Of a DNA stretch of 64,000 nt, positions 4,184-63,066 are shown in pieces. The stretch spans positions 1 through 64,000 of IMG/VR virus record IMGVR_UViG_3300020473_000025; one strand, given 5' to 3'. The stretch comes from a virus. Its lineage: Duplodnaviria; Caudoviricetes. Position 1 is the stretch's first letter; each line of letters begins with the position of its first letter. Position numbers and translations under genes: made by a program. The notes below the pieces were generated by a model that was given only the letters and a program-made list of their open reading frames with translations, was not told where the DNA came from and made no database searches.

Positions 4184-4218
4184 TATAACCCTGCCAATGC
4201 GGTAGGGTTATATGCCGT
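4184..4218 (+). terminator. Hairpin + TATGCCGT element
   Basis: TATAACCCTGCC-loop-GGTAGGGTTATA followed by TGCCGT; no U-tract. Confidence 0.65.
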
Positions 4219-4231
4219 CAGGAAATAATAG

Positions 4232-4242
4232 ACCTATATTAC
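4232..4242 (+). promoter_or_regulatory. Early (vRNAP-type) promoter motif ACCTATATTAC
   Basis: Contains TATATTAC, the early promoter motif described for phiKZ; the motif recurs in this window. Confidence 0.75.
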
Positions 4243-4280
4243 CAGTATGTATTTACAATACTAACTAAGGATAAATATAA

Positions 4281-4793
4281 ATGCAACCACAGCCCTTTAA
4301 AGCTACGTTTAACGAGTTCTTTAGAAGCGTCTATCCTGTCAACCTAGGAATAGACCCACAACAACGTGGGTTGATTAAAACCTTTTTCTACGTTGGTGGT
4401 CTACTATTTAAAAATAGCGCCATTAAAGGCGGTAGTGACGATATTTCCATGGAGCAGAATGTTAAGACCCTAGTAGATATTCAACACCATCTAAGACGTT
4501 ACGGGCGTCAATTGAACCGTACATCACACCCACCTATAAAGGGTAAGTTGGGTGAAACATTTAAAACGTTCATTGCAAAAGACATAACACCCGAATTGCC
4601 TAAAGGCAAGCCTATGTTAGATTGCTACAACGCCTACGTAGCAGGGATGTTATCCATGTTAGAAATTCTAACAGAAAGTTCAGACATCGATAATGAAGAC
4701 ATAGCCATTACCCGCTTTGATATCATCAACGATGACCTTATGGCTAACACAGGGATTGAAGCTTGGCACGTGCCTGAATGGCCCATGGACTAA
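4281..4793 (+). CDS. Hypothetical early protein with an apparent internal duplication
   Basis: AAGGA RBS, downstream of an early motif; the two halves end in TFFYVGG and NAYVAGM. Confidence 0.7.
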   Translation: MQPQPFKATFNEFFRSVYPVNLGIDPQQRGLIKTFFYVGGLLFKNSAIKGGSDDISMEQNVKTLVDIQHHLRRYGRQLNRTSHPPIKGKLGETFKTFIAKDITPELPKGKPMLDCYNAYVAGMLSMLEILTESSDIDNEDIAITRFDIINDDLMANTGIEAWHVPEWPMD

Positions 4794-4840
4794 TTGAAAT
4801 CCATCTGTCTAGTTTACTATCCGACTGTAATTAAAAACAC

Positions 4841-4851
4841 ACCTATATTAC
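4841..4851 (+). promoter_or_regulatory. Early promoter motif ACCTATATTAC
   Basis: Exact motif in an intergenic region. Confidence 0.75.
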
Positions 4852-4951
4852 TTTTGTGAGCGTAGAGTGAATAAGACACCTATGTGATAAAAGTACTTAA
4901 ATCAGAAAACATTGATCCGATCAATCAATAAACAAATAGGAAGACTATAAA

Positions 4952-5503
4952 ATGGCTGAAGCCCAAAAGAAAAGCCCAATGCAACAATTCGTTCTATCTC
5001 AAGCTACAACTGAAGCACTTGAGAAAGTTGCCACTGTTGGTATCGACGCAAAGAAAATCGAAGCGTCTAACGTTATCACTAGCCATGTTGAATCAGTGTC
5101 TAATGGCGTTATCTCTTACGATGTACCTAAAGACGTTGCAGCGGGTCTATTGCCTGAAGGCTTGACAATGGAAACTGTTGACCAGGTTGGCGAGTTCCAC
5201 AAGAAGTGTGCAACAGCACTAGCGCAAAGTGTATCTGAAGTAGGTATCGATGCGATGGCGCAGGATAACGAAGTAACAACAGTAACCGGCTCATTACCAG
5301 TAGGTAAGTATACCAAGCTAGAAGCTACAGTACACCGCTCTAAAGACATCAGCTATCCTAAAGATGGCCAGCGTGTCACCGAAGCACGTCCAGGTCATGT
5401 AGACCTTAAAGTAACATCGAGCTACGGTAAGAGCTCGTCTAGCCACGTATCAGCGGTACGTACGCACGCGGCGGCACTAGCTAAACAGCTATTGTCTAAA
5501 TAG
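4952..5503 (+). CDS. Hypothetical early protein
   Basis: 183 aa ORF flanked by its own early motif and a hairpin terminator; AGGA RBS. Confidence 0.75.
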   Translation: MAEAQKKSPMQQFVLSQATTEALEKVATVGIDAKKIEASNVITSHVESVSNGVISYDVPKDVAAGLLPEGLTMETVDQVGEFHKKCATALAQSVSEVGIDAMAQDNEVTTVTGSLPVGKYTKLEATVHRSKDISYPKDGQRVTEARPGHVDLKVTSSYGKSSSSHVSAVRTHAAALAKQLLSK

Positions 5504-5525: not shown

Positions 5526-5575
5526 GGATGGTAGAGACGTTACAGTCTCTACCATCTATGCCGTATTCTTTTTTT
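5526..5575 (+). terminator. Hairpin + TATGCCGT + T-run
   Basis: GATGGTAGAGAC-loop-GTCTCTACCATC, then TATGCCGTATTCTTTTTTT. Confidence 0.75.
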
Positions 5576-6436: not shown

Positions 6437-6473
6437 TGACGCAGAGGGGTAAAACCTTCTGCGTTATGTCCGT
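6437..6473 (+). terminator. Hairpin + TATGTCCGT variant element
   Basis: GACGCAGAGG-loop-CCTTCTGCGTT followed by ATGTCCGT. Confidence 0.6.
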
Positions 6474-7102: not shown

Positions 7103-7154
7103 ACGGCATAAAAGAGCACGATTAAATCGTGCTCTTGTTATTATGCTTTTTTTT
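7103..7154. terminator. Bidirectional hairpin element between convergent genes
   Basis: ACGGCATA, hairpin AAGAGCACGAT/ATCGTGCTCTT, then TTATGC and a T-run. Confidence 0.7.
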
Positions 7155-13841: not shown

Positions 13842-15536
13842 ATGTTAAATGAATCAGCCCCGGTCTTTAATGTAGACCTTAATCGCGGGTTTCGTATCTG
13901 GCATATTAGTGAAATATATCAGATCGGCCAGGAGGACACAGACGGTGTCAACAACCACGTCCCTAATGTAGACGACATGGTGGTGGATTGGACGCGTGGT
14001 ATTTTGCGCGTCACTTACATCAATCTTCAAACCGGCGAAAGTCGTTTAGAGATTTGGCGTGTACCTACAGAAACAGGTATTGCAGATAGAGATATTATCT
14101 TGGGTCTTGCTCCTGGATCTATCACCGAACATTATCGTGTTTATGTGGATAGCTCGGTTGTACCTCACGTCATGTCGTTTGATAGTCGCCTGCATATTTA
14201 CGGTAGCAATGTATCGCATGTTAAGGTGTTTAAAGGACATGATATCGATGATAAGACAGGTGTTGTCATTTCAGCTCGCTATGATCAAAATGGCGTGTTG
14301 ATCTCTGATAACATTGAAGTGGTAGATGTGGTACCCGCCGAGGATAACAATCCAGCAATCAAACAACCACGCACTGCTCACTCATCGATTGAAGTTACTG
14401 ATGGTGAGGTGTTGACACTAGTAGCGTATAATCAAAACTCATCAGTTGCTGCAGTATCGCGCTTGCTTGCTAAAAACACATCGTTCATTAAAGCATCGGC
14501 AGCGGCTACTGAATACATTGTTGATGTGTATATTGAATCGCCGTTTCTATCCAAGACGCTTCAAAACACACTCCATTACCCACACAACCTACCATTAAAT
14601 TCAATGAACCTGGTAGGGGTGGTGAAGTACAACAATGGGCGTAAGGTGCGTTATCCGATTAACAATCAATCTCGCATGCGTTTATTCGGTATTGAAAACT
14701 ACATTCCGTCAGTGGTTGGTCAGTCAGTGCCGTTGGTGTTGTCGTACCGTTTAGACAGTGATGAGACAACGTTCTCTCATTCCTTTAAAAATGGTGCTAT
14801 CTCAATTCCATATAAAGCAATCACTACCGATGAAGATTTACGCTACAACGTGAAACTCTACGTGGTGCCTAAGTGGATAAGCGACTCGGTGGGGTATACG
14901 TTAGAGTATTACCTCTATTCGATGGAGCGTGATATTGCAATTAATGTCACGCAGTATGTTGAGACTGATGCTACACAGACCACATCGTTTAATCCGACGC
15001 TTTATGGTGCACTTCAGAAGCTTGTTGTGGTAATTCAACTTAAAGATGTTGATAGCACTTATCAGAGCTACAGGCACGTGCAGCGCTTTAACATTACGTT
15101 GTTGGGTCGACCTCACACCACTGATGCACCTTATCTCATTGATTACAACGCAGATGGTGATTTGGTCTACGGTGTAGGTCTGTTTGCCCATACGTGTCGT
15201 GATGGTGATGATCCCTCTAAGTGGAATATTGATATCTCGCAAGGTGAGATTGACACCCATAAGTGGCTGCAGAAGATGTACGCCAACATCGACCCGCTGG
15301 TTATTCGTGAAGAGGAAGCAGAAGCGCCTATTCCAAACCATATGTTAGTCACGATTGATAATGATGAATTCCTCATCCCTATCGAAGATTACCGTGAGCT
15401 AATTCAGGTTGATTTTGAGCCAAATGTTAACTGTATGCTTACTATCCAATGGATACGTCAAACACCTACTAATGATCTCCATCTAGGTATTAGCAGTTTA
15501 AATATTGTTAATGATGAAGACAACGACGTGGGTTAA
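13842..15536 (+). CDS. Virion structural/baseplate protein (phiKZ gp26-like)
   Basis: 564 aa beta-rich ORF; N-terminal W..SEIY...VPNVDD.V.D; synteny. Confidence 0.6.
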   Translation: MLNESAPVFNVDLNRGFRIWHISEIYQIGQEDTDGVNNHVPNVDDMVVDWTRGILRVTYINLQTGESRLEIWRVPTETGIADRDIILGLAPGSITEHYRVYVDSSVVPHVMSFDSRLHIYGSNVSHVKVFKGHDIDDKTGVVISARYDQNGVLISDNIEVVDVVPAEDNNPAIKQPRTAHSSIEVTDGEVLTLVAYNQNSSVAAVSRLLAKNTSFIKASAAATEYIVDVYIESPFLSKTLQNTLHYPHNLPLNSMNLVGVVKYNNGRKVRYPINNQSRMRLFGIENYIPSVVGQSVPLVLSYRLDSDETTFSHSFKNGAISIPYKAITTDEDLRYNVKLYVVPKWISDSVGYTLEYYLYSMERDIAINVTQYVETDATQTTSFNPTLYGALQKLVVVIQLKDVDSTYQSYRHVQRFNITLLGRPHTTDAPYLIDYNADGDLVYGVGLFAHTCRDGDDPSKWNIDISQGEIDTHKWLQKMYANIDPLVIREEEAEAPIPNHMLVTIDNDEFLIPIEDYRELIQVDFEPNVNCMLTIQWIRQTPTNDLHLGISSLNIVNDEDNDVG

Positions 15537-15590
15537 CCGCATAAAAGCCTAACCACCTAGCCGTGAGGCCGGGTGGTTAGCTTATGCCGT
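15537..15590. terminator. Bidirectional hairpin element
   Basis: CCGCATA...CTAACCACC-loop-GGTGGTTAG-CT-TATGCCGT between convergent genes. Confidence 0.7.
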
Positions 15591-21143: not shown

Positions 21144-21195
21144 ACGGCATAACCTACCTCTACCCGTCAAAAGGTAGAGGTAGGGTCTCTATGCC
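21144..21195. terminator. Bidirectional hairpin element
   Basis: ACGGCATA-A-CCTACCTCTACC-loop-GGTAGAGGTAGG...TATGCC between convergent genes. Confidence 0.7.
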
Positions 21196-21693
21196 TTATT
21201 GGTCAAATATCTTTTTAAAGTACTCCACATAGACCGAGTCGTAGCGGGTACCGGTTATTTGATTTTCTAATCGCTCGTACGCGTTTTGTTGTTGGGGGGT
21301 TAACGTACGATAAGTTAATGCCTGAATAATATCTTTATCGTTTATAAGACGACGAAGGTATACAGACACGAACTGTCTTCTTAACGGATCATGCAGAGGT
21401 AGTGTGTAGAGCGCGCCGATAAACTCCATCAACGTCTCATCGTCAAGTAGTTGGATTGTCTCATAGGGAATTTTAATTCCCTGGTGCAGCCACTCAACGA
21501 GTTTAACAAACGGGACCTGCTCCCCGTAATAATGAAGGATCTTATCTTGTAGCGCGTCTAAACCTTCAAGGTAGGTTCTAGGTGGTTGTTTAAATGTTTT
21601 GTTCTTATACAACCTATACACATCACTAGCATAAACCGTTATAAGTACATGTAGACTATACATGGTGACGACCCCTGGTGGGCTGTTGAACAT
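21196..21693 (-). CDS. Hypothetical protein
   Basis: 165 aa ORF directly downstream of 21697-22908. Confidence 0.65.
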   Translation of the reverse strand: MFNSPPGVVTMYSLHVLITVYASDVYRLYKNKTFKQPPRTYLEGLDALQDKILHYYGEQVPFVKLVEWLHQGIKIPYETIQLLDDETLMEFIGALYTLPLHDPLRRQFVSVYLRRLINDKDIIQALTYRTLTPQQQNAYERLENQITGTRYDSVYVEYFKKIFDQ

Positions 21694-24613: not shown

Positions 24614-24621
24614 TGCAATTT

Positions 24622-43471: not shown

Positions 43472-43480
43472 GCGCATGGA

Positions 43481-43512
43481 AGGGCTAGACAGTAATCTAG
43501 CCCTCTTTTATT
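43481..43512 (+). terminator. Intrinsic-type terminator
   Basis: AGGGCTAGA-loop-TCTAGCCCT followed by CTTTTTATT. Confidence 0.65.
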
Positions 43513-43541
43513 ACTAAGTTCCAAAATGAGAGGAAGCTTAA

Positions 43542-43955: not shown

Positions 43956-44773
43956 CGATGGTTATCCCAGGTAAACTCTCTTTAAAGACACTAGCAGTTA
44001 TTGCCTCGGTGGAAGCTAAAGCTGAAAGTAAGTCTTTTTTTAATCGAATCCCTCAGTTCTTAGAACAGTTACGTGAAAAGGTTGCAAGTGACATCACTAT
44101 GACTAAAGGGGAAAGTCCTAGTGAACAGCTAAACCCGAAAGCATTCACTAAGATGCTTAAGGATGTTAACTACGCGACAATCTCAGAGCTTGCTGTCTTT
44201 AGACCAACCGGTATGCGTGGTGGTTATCAAGACTACGTAGAGATGCTGGCTGAGTTTCAAGAGCAGATTGGTGGAATTGAAGAGCGCTTACTTACACCAT
44301 TGAAACGTACCGTTGCTCAAATGCTGGTAGAGCCTAAACGTTTATCTCAGGCATTCCCGGTCAATTATAAAGTGGTTGACATAGAAAAACTTCAGAAGTT
44401 ATTTAACAAAGAAGTAGATCTTCAAGACTCAGGTGACAAGATTACCTATAGTGATGCAGTTAACCGCAATAAAGACTGGGAAGGTATTGTATCTACAGTA
44501 AACCTGTTAGATGATCAATATCAAAGAGAGCCTAATAGCGATATCTTAAAATCAGTAGGTGAGTTAACAGAACACATCAATCTGTTGATCCAGCGTATTG
44601 GCGATCAGCCTGACGTTTATGTAGTTAAAGGTACGACCTTATCTGCACTGGTAGATGCTACCTATCAAGCAGCTAAAGAAGTTGAACTCTACGCTGCACA
44701 TGGCTTTAACCTAGCCACTACCAAGAAAGCATTAGTTGACAGCTATCGTCAAGTTAAAGAAGCTATCGAATAA
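43949..44773 (+). CDS. Hypothetical protein, possibly a head protein (N-terminal ASVE site)
   Basis: 274 aa; AAGGA RBS. Confidence 0.6.
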   Translation: MLTMVIPGKLSLKTLAVIASVEAKAESKSFFNRIPQFLEQLREKVASDITMTKGESPSEQLNPKAFTKMLKDVNYATISELAVFRPTGMRGGYQDYVEMLAEFQEQIGGIEERLLTPLKRTVAQMLVEPKRLSQAFPVNYKVVDIEKLQKLFNKEVDLQDSGDKITYSDAVNRNKDWEGIVSTVNLLDDQYQREPNSDILKSVGELTEHINLLIQRIGDQPDVYVVKGTTLSALVDATYQAAKEVELYAAHGFNLATTKKALVDSYRQVKEAIE

Positions 44774-44780
44774 AGTACTG

Positions 44781-44815
44781 CACCTAGAGTCAGATGACTC
44801 TAGGTGTTATGCCGT
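44781..44815 (+). terminator. Hairpin + TATGCCGT element
   Basis: CACCTAGAGTCA/TGACTCTAGGTG T TATGCCGT; no U-tract. Confidence 0.65.
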
Positions 44816-45476: not shown

Positions 45477-45511
45477 GGATGGGGTGGGGCGACCTGCCCT
45501 ATCTATGCCGT
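45477..45511 (+). terminator. Hairpin + TATGCCGT element
   Basis: GATGGGGTGGG-GCGA-CCTGCCCTATC TATGCCGT; no U-tract. Confidence 0.6.
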
Positions 45512-46200: not shown

Positions 46201-46210
46201 TAATAAATCT

Positions 46211-46238
46211 AAAGGTGGGCTTCGGTCCATCTTTTTTT
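46211..46238 (+). terminator. UUCG hairpin intrinsic terminator
   Basis: AAAGGTGGGC-TTCG-GTCCATCTTTTTTT. Confidence 0.75.
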
Positions 46239-46254
46239 GTTAAGGATACTAGTA

Positions 46255-49750: not shown

Positions 49751-50452
49751 ATGGCCGATAATAACTTTCGCCGTCCACCTCGCAAGAAGAATGTGTTGGA
49801 CGAGACAAAACTACGCCTTAGCGCTGATCCCGTATCTGGCTCTAAGCGTCGCCCTTCTCTTGCGTTTAGTGTGGTAAAGAACAACCCACGCATTGACATC
49901 TATACCAATGTAGAGGGTGATAAGAACAACGGTAACATCCGTGCAGCAATGGACGCGCCAGTATTCTTTGCTCTAATTGGATTGGTTGAAAAGGCCATTG
50001 AATCAGAGCCAGGTCAGCGTTTTGTAATTCAAAACAAGAACTATAAATGGTTTGGTCAAGGTAAGAAATCTGATACACCGATCAACCTGAGTGATACCTT
50101 AGTAGGTAAGGATGCTGAAGGTCGTATCTTTATCAGCGTTATTGATAAAGAAGATAATAGCCGTCCTAAGATTAAGTTTATCTTTAGTTCAGGCTACTGG
50201 CATGATTTATTCCATGGTGATGGTTCACCATTTAGCGAAGCGGAAGATAGCGTACTGTGTGCTAAGGCATTTGCTGAAATGCTTAAAGGCCTAGTACCGT
50301 TAGTTATGGCTAACGAATATACTCCACCACCACCTCGCGATCAACAAGGTGGATCTGGTTATGGCGGCGGCAATAAAGGCGGCGGTAATAACTACAACGG
50401 TGGTGGTCAGTCTTCGTCGCCAACCATTGACTTTGATGATGATATCTTTTAA
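49751..50452 (+). CDS. ChmC-like nucleus-associated nucleic-acid-binding protein (phiKZ gp67-like)
   Basis: Directly upstream of the sigma-like subunit; NNPRI core, G/N-rich disordered tail and acidic DFDDDIF end. Confidence 0.7.
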   Translation: MADNNFRRPPRKKNVLDETKLRLSADPVSGSKRRPSLAFSVVKNNPRIDIYTNVEGDKNNGNIRAAMDAPVFFALIGLVEKAIESEPGQRFVIQNKNYKWFGQGKKSDTPINLSDTLVGKDAEGRIFISVIDKEDNSRPKIKFIFSSGYWHDLFHGDGSPFSEAEDSVLCAKAFAEMLKGLVPLVMANEYTPPPPRDQQGGSGYGGGNKGGGNNYNGGGQSSSPTIDFDDDIF

Positions 50453-50470
50453 TCATCACGGTTAATTATT

Positions 50471-50503
50471 TAAAAGGTAGGCGCTGGCCTACCTTTTATG
50501 CCC
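50471..50503 (+). terminator. Hairpin + TATGCCC element
   Basis: TAAAAGGTAGGC-loop-GCCTACCTTTTA TGCCC. Confidence 0.65.
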
Positions 50504-50516
50504 ACCAGTGTATGCC

Positions 50517-50539
50517 AAACAACTTAACACCTACATTAT
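50517..50539 (+). promoter_or_regulatory. Early-type promoter; 23-bp exact repeat of 55340-55362
   Basis: AAACAACTTAACACCTACATTAT. Confidence 0.75.
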
Positions 50540-50578
50540 TTAATCGAACCTTTCCCCTAACGATCAAAAGAGGTATAT

Positions 50579-52141
50579 ATGAAAATCACTATTGCACAGC
50601 GCAAGCCAAACGGAATAGCGTCTGTACTGACTAGCCATGGTGATCGTAGTCATGAGTGGGTGTTAAGCCCGTATGAGCGTACGTCCTTTCAAAACCCTGA
50701 TAACATTTTCAACAATGCCAATGCGTACTTAGAAAAACTAGATAAAGAAACGCAGCATCGCATTTGGTCAATCTATGACGATATCTATTTAGCATTTGAA
50801 GAGATAGAAAACATAGATGTACTTCAAGAAACAGTAACGGAACTTGTAAACCGGTTATACTCATTTATTGACGTAGATGCACTGCGTTTATGGTGTAATC
50901 TCTACGGTGTGTATAACATGCCGCCTGATCTACAAGATACATATAGCGAGGGCTTTACACGAGAGCTTACCTATTTAAGAAGTGACTATAAAGGTCTATT
51001 ATTCTTAACTACTGCATTGCGTTACATGGTGCCTATTTGGGGTGAATACATTAAACGTAATAAGGCAGAGATAGGTACAGCATATAAAGAATACATGGCA
51101 ACAGCGTTAATAGGTCAGTCTGATTTATACGAGACCCCTGAGATTGCACGACTAATCGAATACATCGAAGCACGTATTGGCAATCAAGATACATTGAAAC
51201 CTACTACCATACATGGCGGTCTAGGTAGTGTGCAGCAGACAGATTGGTTATTGTCACGTACGCTATTAGGTCGTATCGCTGTAGCAGAAACGGATAAACC
51301 CGATGGGTCTATCATCTCTACTATCTATAACGTTATTACCAATCTCATTGAAAATATGGATAAGACGTTTGGTTCAGGTGGGATGATATTAGACATAGAT
51401 CGTTATCGACCTAAGCGTGGTGAGGAGCGCGAGGATAATGATTCAGTTGCAGAGAACCTGCAAGTATCGCAGCGTGTATCGGATGTACATCCTATCATAG
51501 CCGAGACCTATGTATCCAAGTACGTGGACATGGCTAAGGAGCTGTCTCCGACAGTACCGATACGACTAGTAAAAGAATGTGTAGTACGGTTAACCAAGGC
51601 GGACGATTTAGACATTGAACCGTTCAGAGTTAACCTGGTGGCGATAATTGCTTCAGAGGCGGTTTCCATACGTTCTCTGCATTCACTACACCACCCGGAG
51701 TTATTGCGACTAATAGGTGTTGCACAGGCTATATTGATCCATCATGGATTTGATGATCTAGCCCATGTGTTAACAGCCCGTTGCCAGCCGCAAGATCCAA
51801 CCATCATTAAGGGTGATGCGTATAGTAACAATACGCGTTCACGACTTACTAAAGACAATGTAGATGCCTTGATGAGACTTTATCCACATTACAAGTTAAA
51901 GACTCGTCCAGGTGAGCGTAAGAAAACAGATTGCGAGGGTGTTGAATTTATAGAGGGATTCAATAAACATACCCAAGCGTATGATTGGTTTTACAATTCA
52001 CCTGACACATTACTACAAAAGTCTACCCCGCCAGCAGTAAATGGCAAACCGTTATTGATCTCTACAGATATTAGAAACCAACTGGCTAGTATGCTTCTAA
52101 CGTTCTTAGATCACACGGCACAGTCTGAGCAGACTGTTTAA
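50579..52141 (+). CDS. nvRNAP promoter-specificity (sigma-like) subunit, phiKZ gp68-like
   Basis: 520 aa; TY...DY..L ... PIWGEY pattern; synteny. Confidence 0.75.
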   Translation: MKITIAQRKPNGIASVLTSHGDRSHEWVLSPYERTSFQNPDNIFNNANAYLEKLDKETQHRIWSIYDDIYLAFEEIENIDVLQETVTELVNRLYSFIDVDALRLWCNLYGVYNMPPDLQDTYSEGFTRELTYLRSDYKGLLFLTTALRYMVPIWGEYIKRNKAEIGTAYKEYMATALIGQSDLYETPEIARLIEYIEARIGNQDTLKPTTIHGGLGSVQQTDWLLSRTLLGRIAVAETDKPDGSIISTIYNVITNLIENMDKTFGSGGMILDIDRYRPKRGEEREDNDSVAENLQVSQRVSDVHPIIAETYVSKYVDMAKELSPTVPIRLVKECVVRLTKADDLDIEPFRVNLVAIIASEAVSIRSLHSLHHPELLRLIGVAQAILIHHGFDDLAHVLTARCQPQDPTIIKGDAYSNNTRSRLTKDNVDALMRLYPHYKLKTRPGERKKTDCEGVEFIEGFNKHTQAYDWFYNSPDTLLQKSTPPAVNGKPLLISTDIRNQLASMLLTFLDHTAQSEQTV

Positions 52142-52183
52142 ACCCCCTTTTAAAAAATAACTACGTAAATAGGAAGTGCGAAA

Positions 52184-53674
52184 ATGCTACAATCTAACAT
52201 GACAGTACAACGTTTGATGTTCTTCGAGATGGGCAGCTACCATGCGTTAGCTCTCCGCCCATACCAAACACACACGGATGCTCAGTCTATAGGTATTTTC
52301 AATGACGTGACTAACGGTGGTACTAACTTAAGTACCAATGCAGTAGCGCAAGGTTGTGATGGTTTAGTAAGACCGTCAGCACAAGCTGCTGGAATGGCAA
52401 ACATAGCAGGAGGGTGGGATGAGCGTCGCTTTGTATTCCTCATGCATGTCTCTTTTGAGAAAATGGGTGTCACTATTTATCAAGTATTATCTGGTTATAC
52501 TGACCGTTTTGATCTTAGCCTAAATGGGACATTGAGTCCTGACATGATGTTGCACTTCAATAACTCTGTTGAAATTAGACAGACTGCTATATTAGGTGCA
52601 AACGGTCGCCAGATGCAAATGTCAGTACGCGATGCGTCACACATCCTTACAGATAGCGTGGGTGGAGTTAATCGAAATGGATATCCAGGAGGCTGGGGTG
52701 CGAGCACACAGAGCTTGAACTATTCATGCAGCATGCGTCCAATGGATATCTTCCATAGAAGTGGAGTTCCTAGCGTACTTCATGAAAGCTCCTATACCAG
52801 CAACGCTGTTGATGGTCGTGTAAGTTTCCTACAAGGACCTAAGAAGAGCCGACGCTCTAACTCATCAGCCCCTGTATATCTAAGTCGTCTGCTAACTGCA
52901 CAGCAAACAGCAGAAAGAAACAGCTTAGACGCAATGGACGATGACCAAACGATCCACAACGCAGCAGCGGGTCAGGTAATTGAGCAAAGCATGATGGATG
53001 ATGGTTTCATCTCAACACTAGATGGTCATAGTCAGATCATGTCAACTGCAGCAATTAGCTACGGTGAGTTATGCTCATTCAACCCTCACGTAGATGACAT
53101 CGCTGAAGTTATTAAACGTAAAGCTGGTGCACCAATGCGCCACGGTCGTGATTCAAACCACTGGAACGGTGCTAACAATGAAACACTTATTGCTACAATC
53201 CTAAGTCATTCAGTACCCGCACTGATGCTGGATCTGATGCTATTAGGTGTAGAGTTTACAGCAACTAACAGTACAATAGATAGTGATTACGCAGTTGCCG
53301 TAACTGGTGCTAACAGCTTTGCTGAAGGCATTGACTTACAACCGTACGTAGCACGTTTCATTGACCGTTTGAAGTTTGAGATACTATCGGATATTTCGCG
53401 CCGTAACCGCATCTCGTTCGGTATCCACATGCGTTGTGACATAGTGGCAGACACAACCATAGATATCACGTTAGACGGCAATACAGAGCGTTTTACGATG
53501 CCTAGTTTCTGTGACGCACTAGCAACACCTGTATTTACCACACAACGTACCGACCTAGATAACGTTGCTAACGACATCATGTCAATTAGTAACAACCTAG
53601 AGACCACGGCAGCAATGCACTACGACCATGGTCAATCACCTATAATAACCCCCTTTGACAATCAAGGAGTATAA
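52184..53674 (+). CDS. PicA/Imp1-like nuclear import factor (phiKZ gp69-like)
   Basis: 496 aa; RPY, I.GGW.E.RF.F, GYTD, FN(N)S, RP.DIF and PSFCD.L..P; lies after the gp68-like gene. Confidence 0.7.
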   Translation: MLQSNMTVQRLMFFEMGSYHALALRPYQTHTDAQSIGIFNDVTNGGTNLSTNAVAQGCDGLVRPSAQAAGMANIAGGWDERRFVFLMHVSFEKMGVTIYQVLSGYTDRFDLSLNGTLSPDMMLHFNNSVEIRQTAILGANGRQMQMSVRDASHILTDSVGGVNRNGYPGGWGASTQSLNYSCSMRPMDIFHRSGVPSVLHESSYTSNAVDGRVSFLQGPKKSRRSNSSAPVYLSRLLTAQQTAERNSLDAMDDDQTIHNAAAGQVIEQSMMDDGFISTLDGHSQIMSTAAISYGELCSFNPHVDDIAEVIKRKAGAPMRHGRDSNHWNGANNETLIATILSHSVPALMLDLMLLGVEFTATNSTIDSDYAVAVTGANSFAEGIDLQPYVARFIDRLKFEILSDISRRNRISFGIHMRCDIVADTTIDITLDGNTERFTMPSFCDALATPVFTTQRTDLDNVANDIMSISNNLETTAAMHYDHGQSPIITPFDNQGV

Positions 53675-53676
53675 CC

Positions 53677-54897
53677 ATGAGCCGCCTGATAAATCTTTAT
53701 AAAACCATACTGACCTCGGCGGGTCTTGAGTCTGATGCGCAAGGACGTATCTATCAAAAGTTAGCAGGGGAATCAATACCCTGTACAGTAGGTGAGAAAT
53801 TGCTTTTGCTGCCAACCAAAGAAGTATTGAAAGATACTGACTGGACAAGCGCTATTGCATTTCACCCACTTAGTGAGAATGTGGCTCGTGGTGAGTCACC
53901 TATTATCAAGAAGCTTAAAGAGCTACTACTTACACGTGCTACTCGTGTATTAGATGGTTTAGCGTTTCAACTGCTATCAATGGCGGCGAATACGCAAACA
54001 CATGAGAAGTTCTCACCGGCACAACTTGAATACCTGACGTACCTTAAAGATGCTGATGGTAAGATGGTAGATGCTTATCGTAAGATGATAGGTTCGGTGA
54101 CCATCGACGGCAAGCACCGTTTGATTAACATGTACCTAAAACGCTCAGGTACACTCAACGACACTAAGTACGCCCGTCTTTGTATTACTAGCTTACCAAT
54201 ACTGGATAAGTCTGATGAGGGTGAGCGAACGCTGTTTGGCCATAAAGTAAGAAAGCGTGACTTTACCTCTATCCCTCAGCTATTTGAATACATCCTACCT
54301 GGTGTTAACGAAAACGCATACAGCTACGGTACGCATAATAAAACGGCACCGTTTTTCCATGCGCTAATGCTAAGTTACCTTAACATCGCTAAACAACTTA
54401 ACCAGCGTGTTGAGATGTTTAAAGAGCATCTAGTAGATGTAGATGACTTACTAATCGATGTAAGCTTTGAAGCTGAAATGGGTTGTCTATCAGACATGCG
54501 TGATGAGATCCCACCACTAGAAGGTAATCAGGGTGATGTTGAAAATAAAGCCCCAGATACTACAGCTAACGTGGCTAAACCTGCTAATGCACCAGCATCA
54601 GCGCCTAAACCAGTAGAACCTAAGCCATCGGCTCCTGCTAAGTCAGGCGGTGCTCGTGAATGGAATACACTATCGGGAAACCGTGGTCATGGTAACGGCT
54701 ACCAACCAGCAAACACTGGATGGAGTAATGCGGCGTATGCGCCACCACCAAGTGGTCGCGCTGCAGCAATGCAGAAACAACGCCAGGTTGCTTACAACAA
54801 CTCACCTTGGAATCAGGGTCAGAATGCTGGATGGGGTAACCCGCAACCACAGAACACAGGTTGGAACCAAGGTGGTTACAACGGTGGTGGTGTTTAA
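53677..54897 (+). CDS. Conserved nucleus-block protein (phiKZ gp70-like) with a low-complexity G/N/Q/W tail
   Basis: L.LPT, FHPLSEN..RGES, AP.FHALM and IP.L.GN.G motifs. Confidence 0.7.
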   Translation: MSRLINLYKTILTSAGLESDAQGRIYQKLAGESIPCTVGEKLLLLPTKEVLKDTDWTSAIAFHPLSENVARGESPIIKKLKELLLTRATRVLDGLAFQLLSMAANTQTHEKFSPAQLEYLTYLKDADGKMVDAYRKMIGSVTIDGKHRLINMYLKRSGTLNDTKYARLCITSLPILDKSDEGERTLFGHKVRKRDFTSIPQLFEYILPGVNENAYSYGTHNKTAPFFHALMLSYLNIAKQLNQRVEMFKEHLVDVDDLLIDVSFEAEMGCLSDMRDEIPPLEGNQGDVENKAPDTTANVAKPANAPASAPKPVEPKPSAPAKSGGAREWNTLSGNRGHGNGYQPANTGWSNAAYAPPPSGRAAAMQKQRQVAYNNSPWNQGQNAGWGNPQPQNTGWNQGGYNGGGV

Positions 54898-54906
54898 ATA
54901 ATAAAG

Positions 54907-54954
54907 ACGGCATAAGTAGAGGGGTCAATCCCTCTACTTGTCTTTTTTTGCCGT
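54907..54954. terminator. Bidirectional hairpin element
   Basis: ACGGCATA AGTAGAGGG-loop-CCCTCTACT TGTCTTTTTTTGCCGT. Confidence 0.7.
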
Positions 54955-54991
54955 CAGGCTGTCGTTTTTTACATAGTAAACAGATAATATG

Positions 54992-55327
54992 TTAAACTCT
55001 ATTAGCTAAATGCATAGACTTTAAACGTTCTATTTCTTCTATAGCAGGCATGATAACCGTGTTCTTGTCTTTATAGTCACTAGGGTGCTCATAGCCGTTT
55101 ACACGTAGCATGATCCAATGATACTTAGTGGCTACATCTAACTCTAACATAAGCCCGTAGAAGTCGGACTCCTGTCTATATACACGGTGTTCGTCAATCA
55201 CGGCAGTTTGGGTCTTTTCATGATTACGTAGATGCTTTAAATGCGTTTCAATCATGATGCGAAAATTAGGGTCGTAGTAAACATCAGCGCCATTAGTTCG
55301 CTGTAGTTCATGAATTTTTAACGTCAT
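54992..55327 (-). CDS. Small conserved protein, LysM / T4 gp53-like baseplate pattern
   Basis: GGAG RBS before ATG 55327; DFYGL......Y.WI.LRVNG..P pattern. Confidence 0.55.
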   Translation of the reverse strand: MTLKIHELQRTNGADVYYDPNFRIMIETHLKHLRNHEKTQTAVIDEHRVYRQESDFYGLMLELDVATKYHWIMLRVNGYEHPSDYKDKNTVIMPAIEEIERLKSMHLANRV

Positions 55328-55339
55328 CGAGCCTCTCCT

Positions 55340-55362
55340 AAACAACTTAACACCTACATTAT
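55340..55362 (+). promoter_or_regulatory. Early-type promoter; 23-bp exact repeat of 50517-50539
   Basis: AAACAACTTAACACCTACATTAT. Confidence 0.75.
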
Positions 55363-55408
55363 CTTAGAGCAACAAATAACATAAGCCCTTTACATAGGAT
55401 AATTAACC

Positions 55409-57469
55409 ATGTCCAATATTAATACATCCGAATTACATCCGGAGTTAATGGGTCTAGGTAATAACTTAGATTCATTTGGTAAACATAACTCAGCCTCTCG
55501 TAGAAAGATGTTCTCATCTCACTTGAGTCAGGCGTTGGTTATTGAGGGTTCGACCCCTAAGCGCATTCAAACAGGTGCTGAGCGTGAGCTTGGTAAATAC
55601 ACCAAAGCTATAAAGATGCCGGTTGATGCATCTATCATTAAAGTCATTCGGCGCTATCCTCGTCGACCCGGTGCTGATTCTATCAAAGAGAATCCAGCCA
55701 CGGCTATTATCTACGAAGATGTCAATACGCAGGAAGTTGATATCTTGATGGTTGAGAATTATTGCTCCGACCATAATACGTTTGGGTTCCAATACTACCC
55801 TACAGCGGCAATGGAGAAAATCTACCCAGGAATGCAGGTTCCTAAGGGTACGGTGCTTGCTAAATCCAAGTCGCTTAAGGATGACGGTAACTATGCTTAT
55901 GGCTTAGAAGCAAACGTTGCCTATATGTCTTTACCAGCTACCATTGAGGATGGTTTTATTATCAGTGAGTCTATGGCGGAAAGACTTACTACTACCATGA
56001 CCGGTTCTCGTGTAGCTAGCTGGGGTAAAGAGTATTACCCGCTTAACTTGTACGGTGATGAAAACAATTACAAGCCATTCCCAGACATCGGTGATAAAAT
56101 ACGTGAAGATGGACTATTGTTCGCTCTGCGTAAATACGATCCAGCGCTTGGGATGGTAGAGATGACGCCTAGGGCGTTGATGACCCCAGACTACACGTAT
56201 GATAAACTAACGTATGTTTCACCTGCTGCAGGTGCGACGGTTTATGACGTCGTGGTTGATATGGATCACAACCTACCCTACAGCATTACACCTGTAGGGA
56301 TGAATGCGCAGCCCGATAAGTACATGCGTCTGCGTGATCAGTTTTACGAATATATTTACAATGAATACCGTCGTCTTGCCAAACATCGTGGTAAGGGTCT
56401 TCAATTGTCAGGTAGATTTACTAACTGGGTAACACAGGCGATTGCTAATAAGCCTAATGCCTCGCCCCACAAGGTTACACGCAAGTATCGTTACACCCCA
56501 CTTGACGATCGTCGCGTAGAAATTAAATATGCGAAGAAAGTAAAAGCCACTAAAGGGTTTAAGCTTACTGATAGTTCAGGAAGTAAGGGCGTTGTAGTAG
56601 AAGTATGGGAGGATAGCCGACTACCTGTAGGTCAAAATGGTCTACGTGCAGATGTTATCATGGATCCTATCTCGCCGGTTAAGCGTATTAACTTGTCTCA
56701 GCTATACGAGCAGTATGTTAATGCAACTAGCCACATGGTGACATGTGTGGTTAGAGATCTGATGAGTAAGGGTGAATACCAGAAAGCATGGGATTATTTG
56801 AAAGAGTACTACAGTGTAGTATCGCCGCCAATGATTCAAACCATCAACGAGGTGCTAAATAACGATAACCGTATAATTACACACTTACACACCATTGCTG
56901 CTACGGGTATTTATCTCTACCTTCCTGTGGATAGTATACACATTGGACCTAAATTAATCCAAGACCTCCGCACTAAGTTTCCAGTAGATATACAGCCGGT
57001 TACTTATTCACCTGATGGTGTTAACCAGGTCACTACAATAGATCCTGTATTAATAGGGTCTAAGTACATGATGTTATTAGAAGCGGCACCAGATAACTGG
57101 TCATCGGTCTCTACCGCTAAACTACAGCATCATGGCTTACCTGCTAAAGCATCTAAGAGCGACCGCTATGGTTCACCTAACCGTGAGCTACCTGTGCGTA
57201 TCATGGGTGAGGATGAAGTTAGACTACTTAATGCTGCCCTAGGATCTGACGTAACTGCCGAACTGTTAGATGCGTCTGCATCGCCGTTAACACAGAAAGC
57301 TATTATCCGTTCGATCCTTAACGCAGACCAACCGTCTAACATTAATCAAACTGTTAACCGTCGCAAACACCCACTGGGTAGAAGTCGACCATTGGAATAT
57401 GTAAACCACCTATTAAGCTGCGCAGGTGTTAAATTTGTAAGAGGGACGTACGATCATGAGAAAGTTTAA
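55409..57469 (+). CDS. nvRNAP beta subunit (phiKZ gp71-73-like), uninterrupted
   Basis: SASR..M..SH..Q, EDGFIISES, FPDIGD.I, G.KL....GSKGVV, AD.IMDP....R.N and R.GE.E motifs. Confidence 0.9.
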   Translation: MSNINTSELHPELMGLGNNLDSFGKHNSASRRKMFSSHLSQALVIEGSTPKRIQTGAERELGKYTKAIKMPVDASIIKVIRRYPRRPGADSIKENPATAIIYEDVNTQEVDILMVENYCSDHNTFGFQYYPTAAMEKIYPGMQVPKGTVLAKSKSLKDDGNYAYGLEANVAYMSLPATIEDGFIISESMAERLTTTMTGSRVASWGKEYYPLNLYGDENNYKPFPDIGDKIREDGLLFALRKYDPALGMVEMTPRALMTPDYTYDKLTYVSPAAGATVYDVVVDMDHNLPYSITPVGMNAQPDKYMRLRDQFYEYIYNEYRRLAKHRGKGLQLSGRFTNWVTQAIANKPNASPHKVTRKYRYTPLDDRRVEIKYAKKVKATKGFKLTDSSGSKGVVVEVWEDSRLPVGQNGLRADVIMDPISPVKRINLSQLYEQYVNATSHMVTCVVRDLMSKGEYQKAWDYLKEYYSVVSPPMIQTINEVLNNDNRIITHLHTIAATGIYLYLPVDSIHIGPKLIQDLRTKFPVDIQPVTYSPDGVNQVTTIDPVLIGSKYMMLLEAAPDNWSSVSTAKLQHHGLPAKASKSDRYGSPNRELPVRIMGEDEVRLLNAALGSDVTAELLDASASPLTQKAIIRSILNADQPSNINQTVNRRKHPLGRSRPLEYVNHLLSCAGVKFVRGTYDHEKV

Positions 57470-59432
57470 TGTAAGAGAATTACAAAAGCTTAACTCTGAA
57501 GAAATGTGGGCAATGGATGATGAGATATTTACTATTATCTTTGATGATGGTGAATTAGTTACCTCTACTCGTCCTACTATTCTAAGTCACTACTACTGGG
57601 AAATGCAGCGTCATTTCCCAAATGCAACTATACTCAAGCGCCATCATATCGGCAACGGTCATTACACCCCTAAGCTTCATGAGGAGATCTTAAGTAATGT
57701 GTTGTTTGATACGTATTATGCGTTAAACGAAGTAGTTGACATCATGCTACTCAGTCGCATTGCTTATGAGATTACTAATAAACTTTACAACGACGCGACC
57801 AGTCAACTAGCTGGGTTTGTATCAACGGTAAGTATTTTAGATTACATTGAGATACATAACCATCCAATAACCGCAAAAGTTAGGGATGAGTTTAAACCCA
57901 ACGAACGGGCCATTGAACGTGGCTATGAACAGATTAAAGATCTACTGTATAAGAAAGAAGAAGAACTACCTAACAACAACGTTGCTGGGTTCTGTCATTC
58001 TAACGTCTTAAGCGTAGGTCAGATTGTTCAGTCGGTCGCAGCCCGTGGATTTGTAACAGATATCGATAGCCATATCCCGCCTAACCCAATCCCAACTAGC
58101 TACACAGAAGGGATGAATACGCTCCATGATTCGATGATTGAATCACGTTCAGGTTCCAAAGCATCGTTAGCACAGAAAGATCCACTGCAGACTACGCAGT
58201 ATTATAACCGCCGCATGCAGTTGGGTTGTGCGATAATACAAAATCTCCATAAAGGGGATTGTGGAACAACACGTACCGTGAAGTTCCGTGTATTGCCACA
58301 AAGTGTCAAGGTGTTAGTAGGTAAATATTACTACGACAATGACAACGAGCTAAAGGTGTTCACGGGCGATGAAGATCATTTGATCGGTGAGACAATTAAA
58401 CTGCGTTCACCGCTTGCGTGTGAGCATCCAGACCCTTACGGCGTATGTAGTAAGTGTATGGGTACGGTGGCCGCATCGGTTCCACCAGGTGCTAATCTAG
58501 GTCACGTGGCGGCTGTAGAGCTATGTGCGGTTATCTCGCAAAGCGTACTCTCTATTAAACACTTAGAGGTAAGCTCCGTTGCGATTGAGATTAGTCTAGA
58601 TGATCACCATCGTCGCTATCTGCGTCTCAATGCTAAAGGCGATAAGGTATTCATTAGAGATCAAGACCGATACGATCGTATGGAGTTGGTGCTTAATCAC
58701 AACGATGTTAAACATATTGGTGATATTAACACAATTGAAGATATTACTGATCTATCATCAAGCCGTATTTCATCGTGTCGTGATATTGTACTTAATGGGT
58801 ATCGTGGGGATGAGTTTGAAGATGTGTTATTGTCTGTGTCGTCAGGTAAGAACTATTCTTCACTATCGGGTGCAATGTTAAACTACTTGAAAGAACATGG
58901 CTGGTCTCTGAACGAGAAAGGGTTCTATGTTTGTGACCTTAGTCATTGGGACTTCAATGAACCTGCGTTTATTCTTCCAATGAAACACATGAACATGTTG
59001 GAGTATATGGATGTCATTAAGACATTTATTGAATCATCAAGTTCGCAGGAAGATAAAAGCGCAAGCATGTCTAGCCGTACAACGAAGAAGCCTAGAGATG
59101 ATAAGCGTAGCCGTATCGTTAATTGCGATTCATTGTCTCAAGCTTTGATGGACTTACATGTGTTGGTGTCTGAAAAGTTGGGTGTTAACGTGGTGCATCT
59201 GGAAATTATCATCCTGTCAATTTTAGCACGCGACCCTGATCGTATGGATCACCGTCTGCCGCGTCCTCAAGATCAAAAGGTCTTTGGAACGTATAAGCAG
59301 AATATGGAACTTAGATCGTTAACAGGCCAGGCTGCATGGATGAACCAGGCACAGATGATGATATCACCAACGTCGTTTGCTCTGACTAATCGACCTAAGC
59401 ATCCAATGGATACGGTGTTCATGGGTAAATAA
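57456..59432 (+). CDS. nvRNAP beta' C-terminal subunit (phiKZ gp74-like)
   Basis: RGF.TD, ESRS, Y..RR, DCGT, LRSP..C......VC.KC.G, SQ..LS.KH and VHLEII motifs. Confidence 0.9.
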   Translation: MRKFNVRELQKLNSEEMWAMDDEIFTIIFDDGELVTSTRPTILSHYYWEMQRHFPNATILKRHHIGNGHYTPKLHEEILSNVLFDTYYALNEVVDIMLLSRIAYEITNKLYNDATSQLAGFVSTVSILDYIEIHNHPITAKVRDEFKPNERAIERGYEQIKDLLYKKEEELPNNNVAGFCHSNVLSVGQIVQSVAARGFVTDIDSHIPPNPIPTSYTEGMNTLHDSMIESRSGSKASLAQKDPLQTTQYYNRRMQLGCAIIQNLHKGDCGTTRTVKFRVLPQSVKVLVGKYYYDNDNELKVFTGDEDHLIGETIKLRSPLACEHPDPYGVCSKCMGTVAASVPPGANLGHVAAVELCAVISQSVLSIKHLEVSSVAIEISLDDHHRRYLRLNAKGDKVFIRDQDRYDRMELVLNHNDVKHIGDINTIEDITDLSSSRISSCRDIVLNGYRGDEFEDVLLSVSSGKNYSSLSGAMLNYLKEHGWSLNEKGFYVCDLSHWDFNEPAFILPMKHMNMLEYMDVIKTFIESSSSQEDKSASMSSRTTKKPRDDKRSRIVNCDSLSQALMDLHVLVSEKLGVNVVHLEIIILSILARDPDRMDHRLPRPQDQKVFGTYKQNMELRSLTGQAAWMNQAQMMISPTSFALTNRPKHPMDTVFMGK

Positions 59433-62013: not shown

Positions 62014-62022
62014 GAAGAGATC

Positions 62023-62127
62023 ATGCCAACAACAGGTAGTAGTAATCGTCCCTATAAGACAGCCTCAAAACAATTAAGTCCCAAGGTGCTAGCCGTGCTT
62101 AACCGTAGACTTAAAAAGTTAAAGTAG
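62023..62127 (+). CDS. 34-aa basic microprotein (absent from the ORF track)
   Basis: MPTTGSSNRPYKTASKQLSPKVLAVLNRRLKKLK; AAGAG upstream; fills the gap between the helicase stop and a hairpin. Confidence 0.5.
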   Translation: MPTTGSSNRPYKTASKQLSPKVLAVLNRRLKKLK

Positions 62128-62135
62128 ACGTATCT

Positions 62136-62164
62136 AGGCTCACCTCCTTTTGGGGGTGAGCCTA
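62136..62164 (+). terminator. Hairpin ending in TATG(ACC)
   Basis: TAGGCTCACCTCC-loop-GGGGGTGAGCCTA. Confidence 0.6.
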
Positions 62165-62184
62165 TGACCTATAAGGAGTTTTTT

Positions 62185-62823
62185 ATGTTGTATCATCTTG
62201 TTAATGGTGAGCAGGTTTCAGACCCTGAACCGTTCCCAGGTGAAGACATCTGTGTGATGATGATAGACAGCGACGTTTGCAAAATAGAAACCGTACCCTT
62301 TAATTCATTATTTACCATCGATAACTATAACGGCCTCTATACGGTTATAAAAGTAAATGAGGTAGCCGCTATCTCCCAGGTAGAAGGCATTGCTATACCT
62401 GATAAAATTTACGATGTCATGCAGTTAGATGATCTAGTTACTGTACTTTACATGTCAGGTAATGAGATAAGGTATAGAAAACTAATTATAAGTAACTCAT
62501 ATTCTGAATACACGCTGATTAAAGATGGGCTAGTAGCGTTAAACAACCATCCGTTTCCTACTTTAGAAACAGTAGATAGCGTTAGAGTATATAAGCGATT
62601 AAATCATGATGGTTTCACATCACAAAACTTTACGTTATCTACTAAAGAACGCATCACCGGTAACCACCCACTACGTCCACGTGGAATAAATTCAATCACG
62701 TCTTATCAAGATGGATGTATGATAGATGTTGAGTTTACCAATGGGGTCAAGGTTTATAGAAGAGAACTGACTATTACCCCTAACCAAAATACTAACACCG
62801 TAGATGTAGATAGGGGGGAGTAG
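62185..62823 (+). CDS. Hypothetical beta-rich protein, possibly frameshifted at G6 and continuing to 63008
   Basis: TAAGGAG RBS before ATG 62185; the -1 frame is open from 62814 to 63008. Confidence 0.6.
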   Translation: MLYHLVNGEQVSDPEPFPGEDICVMMIDSDVCKIETVPFNSLFTIDNYNGLYTVIKVNEVAAISQVEGIAIPDKIYDVMQLDDLVTVLYMSGNEIRYRKLIISNSYSEYTLIKDGLVALNNHPFPTLETVDSVRVYKRLNHDGFTSQNFTLSTKERITGNHPLRPRGINSITSYQDGCMIDVEFTNGVKVYRRELTITPNQNTNTVDVDRGE

Positions 62824-63007
62824 CATCATGGCACTCCGACTACGTATTTAAATCTAATTTAGCCTCTGTTAAAGCACACGGTATGGCGGTGTTATTTACT
62901 TATGTAGATATAGATAAAGATGGTCGTATTAATACTAATTCATTTAGACTAGAATATGTTACTGGTGGTGAAGTATTTGTAAAAGAGTTTAATACAGCAA
63001 CATCTTG

Positions 63008-63066
63008 ACGGCATAGAGGAAGAGCTAGCGCTACGCTAGCTCTTCCTAGTTATGCGCTTTCTTTTT
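63008..63066. terminator. Bidirectional hairpin element
   Basis: ACGGCATA G AGGAAGAGCTAGCG-CTA-CGCTAGCTCTTCCT AGT TATGCG + T-run. Confidence 0.7.

Follow-up and report, generated by a model that had tools for sequence, protein, structure and literature searches.

Hairpins with a conserved TATGCCGT tail at gene ends of an uncultivated marine chimallivirus, a probable form of the phiKZ terminator motif

The window analysed here (64,000 nucleotides, nt; positions 1 to 64,000 of the IMG/VR virus record IMGVR_UViG_3300020473_000025), which forms the start of an 80,292-bp contig, contains intergenic hairpins that are closely followed by the 8-mer TATGCCGT or a near variant of it. A sequence-only reading of this DNA had taken these elements for a strand-specific 3'-end signal and had asked whether relatives of the phage possess it as well. 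It offered transcription termination, a tag on finished mRNA and re-initiation of transcription as possible roles. What is this element, and what does it do? We show below that its position relative to genes is that of a terminator and that the hairpin together with TATGCCGT very probably represents the known terminator motif of its phage family in a new, distant member, its function here being assigned by analogy.

Enrichment and anatomy of the motif

All 17 forward and 7 reverse-complement positions listed in the sequence-only reading hold the word or a near variant directly behind a hairpin. TATGCCG is found 18 times on the two strands of the window, as opposed to 6.20 times in dinucleotide-shuffled sequences (standard deviation 2.42, maximum 14), and none of 100 such shuffles reached 18. 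Fifteen of the 18 copies lie 0-5 nt behind a strong hairpin, either on the plus strand (4211, 5557, 15583, 24650, 26674, 30974, 33632, 41401, 44808 and 45504) or on the minus strand (7110, 21151, 24666, 54914 and 63015). The remainder comprise a second copy 19 nt past a hairpin (7156) and two unrelated occurrences, one within an open reading frame (ORF) at a weak fold (23699) and one overlapping a start codon (63472-63478). On the whole contig, 34 of 138 TATGC sites stand behind a fold with a free energy (dG) of -12 kcal/mol or lower that ends at most 5 nt away, whereas the same is true of 195 of 4000 random positions (binomial p = 3.6e-15).

For the description of the element we used 29 curated strand-specific sites, namely 28 TATGC sites and the TATGTCCGT variant at 6465; four TATGC sites with a strong fold inside long ORFs (8841, 15851, 54736 and 79209) do not belong to this set. 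The stem-loops of the curated sites, folded from the 46 nt upstream, have dG values of -12.3 to -27.9 kcal/mol, and the spacer between stem and TATG measures 0-5 nt, being 0 in 13 of the 29 sites. At the positions past TATGC, which were not fixed by the selection of the sites, C is present in 22, G in 19 and T in 24 sites. The tail published for phiKZ, TATKYYGT, is matched exactly at 17 sites, and the remaining 12 deviate from it at 1-2 positions.

The element shares with canonical intrinsic terminators a G+C-rich hairpin in the nascent RNA and, to judge from the relatives, an RNA end a few nucleotides beyond the stem. However, canonical terminators have a run of U directly at the stem, whereas 26 of the 29 sites lack it and conserve a specific 8-mer instead. 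This agrees with the earlier remark that many copies have no U-tract: just 3 of 29 sites pass a U-tract test that demands at least five T in an 8-nt window beginning 0-2 nt past the stem. In line with this, a terminator scan of positions 24000-43999 detects only two of the motif sites in that region, those at 30937 and 36847.

Position of the motif relative to genes

The contig has eight convergent and eight divergent gene junctions. A hairpin with a tail on both strands is present at all eight convergent junctions, as expected from the strand logic of the sequence-only reading; at one of them, the plus-strand tail at 54948 is the variant TTTTTTTGCCGTC. Of the 13 same-direction junctions that carry the motif, 12 confine it to the sense strand, the exception being 26642-26681, with copies on both strands; the motif lies 32-209 nt ahead of the next start codon at these junctions. 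None of the eight divergent junctions has a copy behind a fold with a dG of -12 or lower, and the one weak case there (10243, minus strand) has a dG of -8.8. The motif is tied to the end of the upstream gene and to the strand of that gene, as is a terminator and unlike a promoter. The junction geometry is therefore that of a gene-end signal, probably a terminator rather than a promoter, and the claim of a strand-specific 3'-end signal for transcription units is supported both by this geometry and by the mapped RNA 3' ends of phiKZ and 201phi2-1 (see below).

The same geometry bears on the proposal that TATG behind the hairpin is a late promoter with re-initiation at its G, the two forming a coupled stop-start module. 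TATG with G as +1 is the late-promoter core recognized by the non-virion RNA polymerase (nvRNAP) of phiKZ (PMC4666361, PMC12809450), and the two elements thus have in common four bases, on the non-template strand, within the same phage family. The motif does precede the next start codon at same-direction junctions, and RNA contigs from two studies of seawater metatranscriptomes begin at 36893, 11 nt past the G of TATG (36882). A late promoter should lie upstream of a late gene and point into it; at all eight convergent junctions, however, both copies point antisense and could give rise to antisense RNA only, and there are none at the eight divergent junctions, where promoters must lie. Furthermore, four additional bases (CCGT) are conserved in the tail, whereas the late promoters of phiKZ have 'no additional sequence conservation downstream' (PMC4666361), and the mapped RNA ends of 201phi2-1 are located 2-3 nt past the G rather than starting there. 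Other RNA contigs start 36-70 nt downstream of the motif, those at 41440-41475 in agreement with an early-promoter-like word. Such a word is found 20-40 nt downstream of several of the terminators, and starts and stops are therefore separate elements. The re-initiation reading is contradicted by these observations and appears quite unlikely.

Terminators of phiKZ and 201phi2-1

The window encodes proteins that match the PHROG families of the nuclear shell protein (chimallin; 1.9e-102), the RNA polymerase (RNAP) beta subunit (4.6e-218), tail sheath, terminase and DNA polymerase, and the order of its genes agrees with that of phiKZ. The chimallin is approximately 30% identical to its homologues in GenBank phages, the closest of which belongs to Xanthomonas phage LucasX. 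Relatives in IMG/VR have chimallin identities of 99, 90, 86-88 and 50%, and a relative that is ~96% identical is represented in seawater metatranscriptomes. No GenBank phage was found to be nearly identical to window positions 50000-58000, and the phage is known from metagenomes alone. Together, these features identify the source of the window, at the level of its genes, as an uncultivated marine chimallivirus, that is, a jumbo phage that forms a nucleus and encodes multisubunit RNAPs of its own. Searches of the window against Rfam (at gathering thresholds) and for tRNA genes gave no matches.

In phiKZ, a member of the same family with the same gene order, ONT-cappable-seq revealed 61 terminators that share the motif 5'-BCCYCCCCHWWDGGGRRGGBYTTATKYYGT-3', and six two-way terminator regions were located between convergent genes (Putzeys et al., microLife 2024, PMC10914365). 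For 201phi2-1, 132 termination sites were mapped, 15 of which were assigned as bidirectional; motif A of that phage (n=59) is said to 'strongly resemble' the phiKZ motif, and motifs A and B together form an elongated hairpin (Microb Biotechnol 2024, PMC11512511). Eight selected strong terminators of 201phi2-1, each with one or several motifs, are functional in uninfected Pseudomonas chlororaphis, where they stop expression of a downstream reporter (PMC11512511). The phiKZ sites were classed as intrinsic with ARNold and those of 201phi2-1 as a mixture of intrinsic and factor-dependent; the sections of the two papers used here give no mechanism for the tail (PMC10914365, PMC11512511). Accordingly, the question of the sequence-only reading as to whether relatives show the signal can be answered in the affirmative for phiKZ and 201phi2-1. 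Its description of the system as non-canonical, in the sense that phage RNAPs would be required, is not borne out by the published assays, because the eight 201phi2-1 terminators work with the host RNAP (PMC11512511). Since these assays were made inside cells, factors of the host may nevertheless contribute to termination.

The phiKZ element is, as here, a stem-loop followed by (T)TATKYYGT, placed between genes behind stop codons and present in a two-way form between convergent genes. Several differences are apparent. The stems follow the consensus CCYCCCC/GGGRRGG in phiKZ but are mostly unrelated to each other in the window, and the tails are T-rich enough in phiKZ for an intrinsic call by ARNold but are represented here by TATGCCGT, with 26 of 29 failing the U-tract test. 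The distance between stem and tail is nearly constant in 201phi2-1 (TTTATG) and ranges from 0 to 5 nt here. The arrangement of motifs A and B in 201phi2-1 would correspond to the ACGGCATA...TATGCCGT pairs at the convergent junctions of the window if B is the reverse complement of A. Finally, the phiKZ terminators come from an RNA map and the 201phi2-1 terminators have been assayed with a reporter, whereas the sites of the window are read from the DNA. A literature search for the word TATGCCGT produced, as its only phage match, a polymerase chain reaction primer in the genome announcement of Klebsiella phage Miami; literature searches identified no paper on conservation of the tail throughout the family or on its link to the TATG promoter core.

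Mapped RNA ends of 201phi2-1 and RNA contigs from seawater

The eight termination coordinates of 201phi2-1 that are printed in PMC11512511 were located on the genome sequence NC_010821, and all of them fall inside the motif. Seven of the eight ends are on the second pyrimidine, TATGYY|GT, and one is a base earlier. By eye, all eight ends are 8 nt beyond the last G-C pair of the core stem; in RNAfold predictions, which add basal A-U pairs, the distance is 4-8 nt. The transcript therefore includes UAUGYY and stops short of the conserved G and T, which occupy the two template positions that follow.

This end position speaks against the earlier suggestion that the motif is a tag for mRNA export that is bound by a ChmC-like protein, as the conserved G and T are outside the RNA in 7 of 8 of the 201phi2-1 sites. 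In addition, the product of the ORF at 49751, proposed to be this protein, matches PHROG 3284 ('unknown function') and gave no Pfam family and no sequence match in the PDB, so that its ChmC-like identity is neither confirmed nor excluded. By analogy with 201phi2-1, the end position argues against a tag on finished mRNA and in favour of a signal that would be read during transcription.

Alternatively, the ends might be generated by RNA processing or trimming, with a nuclease, or a protecting RNA-binding protein, recognizing the hairpin and UAUGCCGU while transcription continues. Primary and processed 3' ends are not told apart by ONT-cappable-seq, which leaves room for such a process, as do the constant distance of the eight 201phi2-1 ends from the core stem, expected of exonuclease stops, and the RNA contigs that span some of the terminators. 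On the other hand, in 7 of 8 sites the mapped end falls short of the conserved G and T, which would need to be read before cleavage, and phages share the motif although their hosts are very diverse and have differing nucleases. The arrest of the reporter by the eight terminators in uninfected cells is a transcriptional read-out. Taken together, these points make a role of the motif in processing quite unlikely.

The seawater data consist of assembled contigs of the ~96% identical relative in four metatranscriptome runs that belong to three studies. In run X2, all five internal contig breaks between 30600 and 50590 are located at motif terminators, corresponding to five of the seven motif sites in that region: 30925/31037, 33592/33629, 36855/36893 (with adapter-tagged ends), 41363/41467 and 44714/44868. 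In the other studies, contig breaks occur at 30917, 33631 and 36893. These breaks give a weak hint of RNA ends at the motif. The word depth of the RNA contig 33629-36855, which spans the chimallin gene and its divergently oriented neighbour, is 5-10 times that of the flanking contigs of the same run in X2 and X6 (in X2, 281.9 versus 29.3 and 50.3). This contrast fits RNA rather than carry-over of DNA, with contig depth being a poor measure.

Conservation in the family

The motif was sought in other Chimalliviridae with a scan for perfect G+C-rich stems of at least 8 bp, in which the following 12-15 nt were inspected on both strands. The 30 pooled chimallivirus loci represent the family outside the clade of the window (L006-L022 in our numbering) and without the near-duplicates L029, L030, L036, L038 and L048. 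In these loci, TATG[CT] is present in 141 of 486 tails behind G+C-rich perfect hairpins, compared to a background of 0.6-2.7%, and 24 of the 30 loci reach p<0.01 for this tail. The most enriched 5-mers behind the hairpins are TATGC (96 observed, 2.46 expected), TTATG, ATGCC, TGCCG and GCCGT, and the enrichment holds over a G+C content of 37-58%. When imperfect stems were allowed, clear cases appeared in L023, L033 and L041, three of the four loci scanned in this way among the six non-significant ones. The same scan shows the tail in phiKZ, 201phi2-1, LucasX, RAY and Eowyn. As for the controls, the full motif was found behind none of 20 hairpins in 40 kb of T4, and 30 kb of AR9 contained no G+C-rich hairpins. 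From this distribution, the terminator motif of phiKZ characterizes the family as a whole, marine phages included.

Close relatives allow a comparison of stem and tail at individual sites. Relatives with 99, 90 and 86% chimallin identity have exactly the same tails at 30974, 33632 and 36879, and changes in the stems preserve pairing. The stem at 30937 is rewritten yet still pairs in the relative with 86% chimallin identity, its tail being invariant. In the stem at 33599, two of 15 pairs are altered on both sides, and 97.3% of cells are paired, as opposed to 31-44% with slid partners; for this stem, the five sequences lend modest support to selection on structure.

Within the genome, the stems are unrelated to each other for the most part, in accordance with the sequence-only reading, which described all of them as unrelated. 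In pairwise comparison of 21 hairpins this description stands for most of them, with the exception of two pairs. The stem-loops at window positions 21151-21186 and contig positions 76822-76861, both of them two-way, share 34 of 36 nt, and those of the two-way terminators at 33599-33631 and 63017-63047 are clearly related. Terminators seem to be copied or converted inside the genome now and then. The near-identical pair and the related pair resemble copies of a mobile element, and might suggest that the motif is a DNA-level repeat, such as an element of the repetitive extragenic palindromic (REP) type or a recombination or packaging site, with no role in transcription. However, the remaining stems are unrelated, the stems vary while their pairing is kept, the strand of the tail follows the direction of the upstream gene, and RNA 3' ends of relatives map to the motif. 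A DNA repeat of this kind is therefore very improbable.

Proposed mechanism of termination

A mechanism may be proposed in which the terminator is formed by a stable stem-loop of the growing transcript together with UAUGCC|GU, which begins 0-5 nt past the stem. The polymerase would stop and release the RNA a few nucleotides beyond the stem; if the 3' end is placed as in the relatives, this point most likely falls between CC and the conserved G. UAUGCC would then be the final stretch of the RNA-DNA hybrid, with G and T as the next template positions, and the tail would stand in for the usual U-tract. The U-poor tail of this phage would expose a sequence requirement that is easily mistaken for a degenerate U-tract in the AT-rich phiKZ. 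Between convergent genes, one hairpin with a tail on both strands would halt traffic from either side.

The tail may act on particular polymerases as a signal for pausing or release. In its stronger form, this refinement of the terminator reading holds that the tail is a sequence-specific pause-and-release signal for the phage polymerases that replaces the U-tract. The Y|G step would then serve as a pause site at which the hairpin could free the RNA with no need for a U-tract. The phiKZ nvRNAP requires T(-3)ATG(+1) for initiation (PMC4666361); in a structure of 2026, a pocket of the core subunit GP123 accommodates the four non-template bases, and the sigma-like gp68 is permanently attached (PMC12809450, PMC7618050). 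A polymerase whose core reads TATG could also respond to TATG during elongation. The retention of the TATGCCGT tail over a G+C content of 37-58% and in hosts from Pseudomonas to marine bacteria would be consistent with such a signal, as would the presence of a U-tract in just 3 of 29 sites. The ends of 201phi2-1, judged by eye, have Y at -1, G at +1 (7 of 8) and GG at -11/-10, and in the features compared they resemble the elemental pause consensus of Escherichia coli, G-10 Y-1 G+1 (PMC6062546). That consensus, however, does not include TATG, and the sites of the window have a variable spacer and no preference for G at the would-be position -10. Likewise, TATG occupies positions -6 to -3 relative to the mapped end, three bases off the promoter register of -3 to +1, and the host RNAP also reads the eight strong terminators of 201phi2-1, according to the reporter assays in uninfected P. 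chlororaphis. Finally, the 346 copies of TATG on the sense strand of genes show no strand-specific avoidance, the word being under-represented on both strands (observed/expected 0.72 on the sense and 0.51 on the antisense strand), and a lack of sense-strand-specific avoidance is true of TATGC and TATGCC within genes. A signal that is specific for the phage polymerases is thus a tentative proposal, of low probability on present evidence.

Several observations weigh against the reading of the motif as a terminator in general. Genes do not avoid TATG or TATGC on their sense strand, so that the tail alone has no detectable effect. Approximately six intergenic hairpins (38930, 40222, 40840, 42321, 43481 and 46210) lack the motif, and another one (62135) has only TATGACCT; the motif is therefore not obligatory. 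The 201phi2-1 ends could also reflect trimming by a 3' exonuclease that halts a set number of nucleotides past the stem. Assembled metatranscriptome contigs cannot show true ends, and some of them bridge terminators: record 13 of run X2 extends over 45504 and 50497, and record 2 of run X1 and record 15 of run X4 extend over 36879. The negative controls consist of two stretches only (T4 and AR9), and the gene calls are crude, being the longest ORFs, with a spurious minus-strand ORF near 28260-28472 taken out by hand.

The strong hairpins without the motif, located at 42321-42345, 43481-43504, 46210-46239 and 62135-62164, have T-rich tails in three cases (CTTTACTATTTATTTTTTT, CTTTTATTAC and TTTTTTG), and the TATGACCT at the hairpin 62135-62164 overlaps a start codon at 62164. 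There may be a second, more ordinary class of terminators in this phage beside the motif class.

Individual sites

The predicted terminators of the window fall on the plus strand when they act in one direction. In the first one (4184-4218, +), at a same-direction junction, a hairpin at 4184-4210 with a dG of -17.5 is followed, with a spacer of 0 nt, by TATGCCGT at 4211-4218, and an early-promoter-like word is located at 4232. The next (5527-5564, +) has a 12-bp stem at 5527-5556, a dG of -20.5 and TATGCCGT at 5557-5564, with ATTCTTTTTTT thereafter, and the variant at 6439-6473 (+) combines a hairpin at 6439-6464 with TATGTCCGT. Further downstream, the site at 30937-30981 (+) consists of a hairpin (30937-30970), a TTT spacer, TATGCCGT (30974-30981) and a subsequent CTTTTTTT. 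The terminator behind the chimallin gene (36847-36887, +) comprises a hairpin at 36847-36874, a TTTT spacer and TATGCCCGT at 36879-36887. At 41381-41408 (+), the hairpin 41381-41398 precedes TATGCCGT (41401-41408) and then ATTCTTTTTT, with an early-promoter-like word at 41440. Two sites have no T-run, one at 44781-44815 (+; hairpin 44781-44806, TATGCCGT 44808-44815) and the other at 45477-45511 (+; hairpin 45477-45503, TATGCCGT 45504-45511). In the variant terminator at 50471-50504 (+), the hairpin (50471-50498) overlaps TATGCCCA (50497), and a variant early-promoter-like word lies at 50530.

Two-way terminators between convergent genes typically use one hairpin for both strands. At 7103-7149, the hairpin 7112-7136 is flanked by TATGCTTT on the plus strand (7142) and TATGCCGT on the minus strand (7110 to 7103); at 15536-15590, the hairpin 15549-15580 has TATGCCGT on the plus strand (15583) and TATGCGGT on the minus strand (15543); and at 21144-21197, the hairpin 21153-21184 has TATGCCTT (21190, +) and TATGCCGT (21151, -). 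The convergent junction at 24622-24692 employs two back-to-back hairpins, a plus-strand one at 24622-24649 with TATGCCGT (24650) and a minus-strand one at ~24667-24690 with TATGCCGT (24666). A 15-bp stem (33599-33631) is found at 33589-33639 together with TATGCCGT (33632, +) and TATGCTGT (33596, -). At 54907-54955, the hairpin 54914-54939 carries TATGCCGT on the minus strand (54914) and the variant GTCTTTTTTTGCCGTC on the plus strand, in which a T-run replaces TATG and GCCGT is retained. The last site (63008-63058) has a 14-bp stem at 63017-63047 with TATGCGCT (63051) and an additional T-run on the plus strand and TATGCCGT (63015) on the minus strand. The same-direction junction with tails on both strands, 26642-26681, contains the hairpin 26651-26671 with TATGCCGC (26674, +) and TATGCGTT (26649, -), and an early-promoter-like word at 26699.

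Early-promoter-like word and T-run terminators

The early-promoter-like word, AGACCTAYATTAC, is present in six copies, all of them intergenic, on the plus strand and 35-111 nt ahead of a start codon (window positions 4232, 4841, 26699, 37484 and 41440 and contig position 76032), with variants at 50530 and 55353. The core of the word, TATATTAC, also precedes early genes in phiKZ, and AGACCTAYATTAC fits the description of early promoters of jumbo phages (PMC7598289). It is probably the early (virion RNAP) promoter of this phage.

The terminators that close units headed by this word differ from the others in the sequence behind the 8-mer. A T-run is found there in all five of them (5557, 30974, 41401, the variant 54948 and contig position 76859), as opposed to 3 of 26 others (one-sided Fisher p = 3.3e-4, in a post hoc comparison with hand-assigned classes). 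This post hoc difference hints that the two phage polymerases, early and late, need different stop signals. The sites at 5557 and 41401 have a common 18-mer, TATGCCGTATTCTTTTTT.

Mobile and variable genes near the terminators

The ORF at window positions 38972-40207, just past the gene that adjoins the chimallin gene, encodes a protein with HNH_3 and NUMOD1 domains, typical of a homing endonuclease. The segment 38893-40631 is absent from the seawater relative, as seen from a contig joint (38892->40632) in all four runs, and this joint explains a gap in the RNA contigs at 39271-40604, which is not an expression signal. The homing endonuclease is a mobile insertion, and phiKZ has an HNH gene (PHIKZ056) at the same place. 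At 40814/40828, two RNA runs have 961 additional letters, and after 41363, the IMG/VR relatives and RNA contigs have ~550 additional bases that begin with GGAGTTGATTATGG and apparently encode a small gene. The regions 40814-40828 and 41363-41413 thus represent a hot spot of gene gain and loss next to a terminator.

Implications

The motif provides a rule for the annotation of uncultivated chimalliviruses, whereby a hairpin with TATGYYGT marks the end of a transcription unit and words similar to AGACCTAYATTAC mark early starts. In this phage the tail is poor in U and nonetheless conserved in sequence, which shows it to be more than a weak U-tract. Should the phage polymerases read the tail, it would be a terminator signal of a new kind among multisubunit RNAPs and could be used to engineer these phages. 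A pause-and-release tail, if true, would also explain its constancy throughout the family, over a G+C content of 37 to 58% and in very different hosts.

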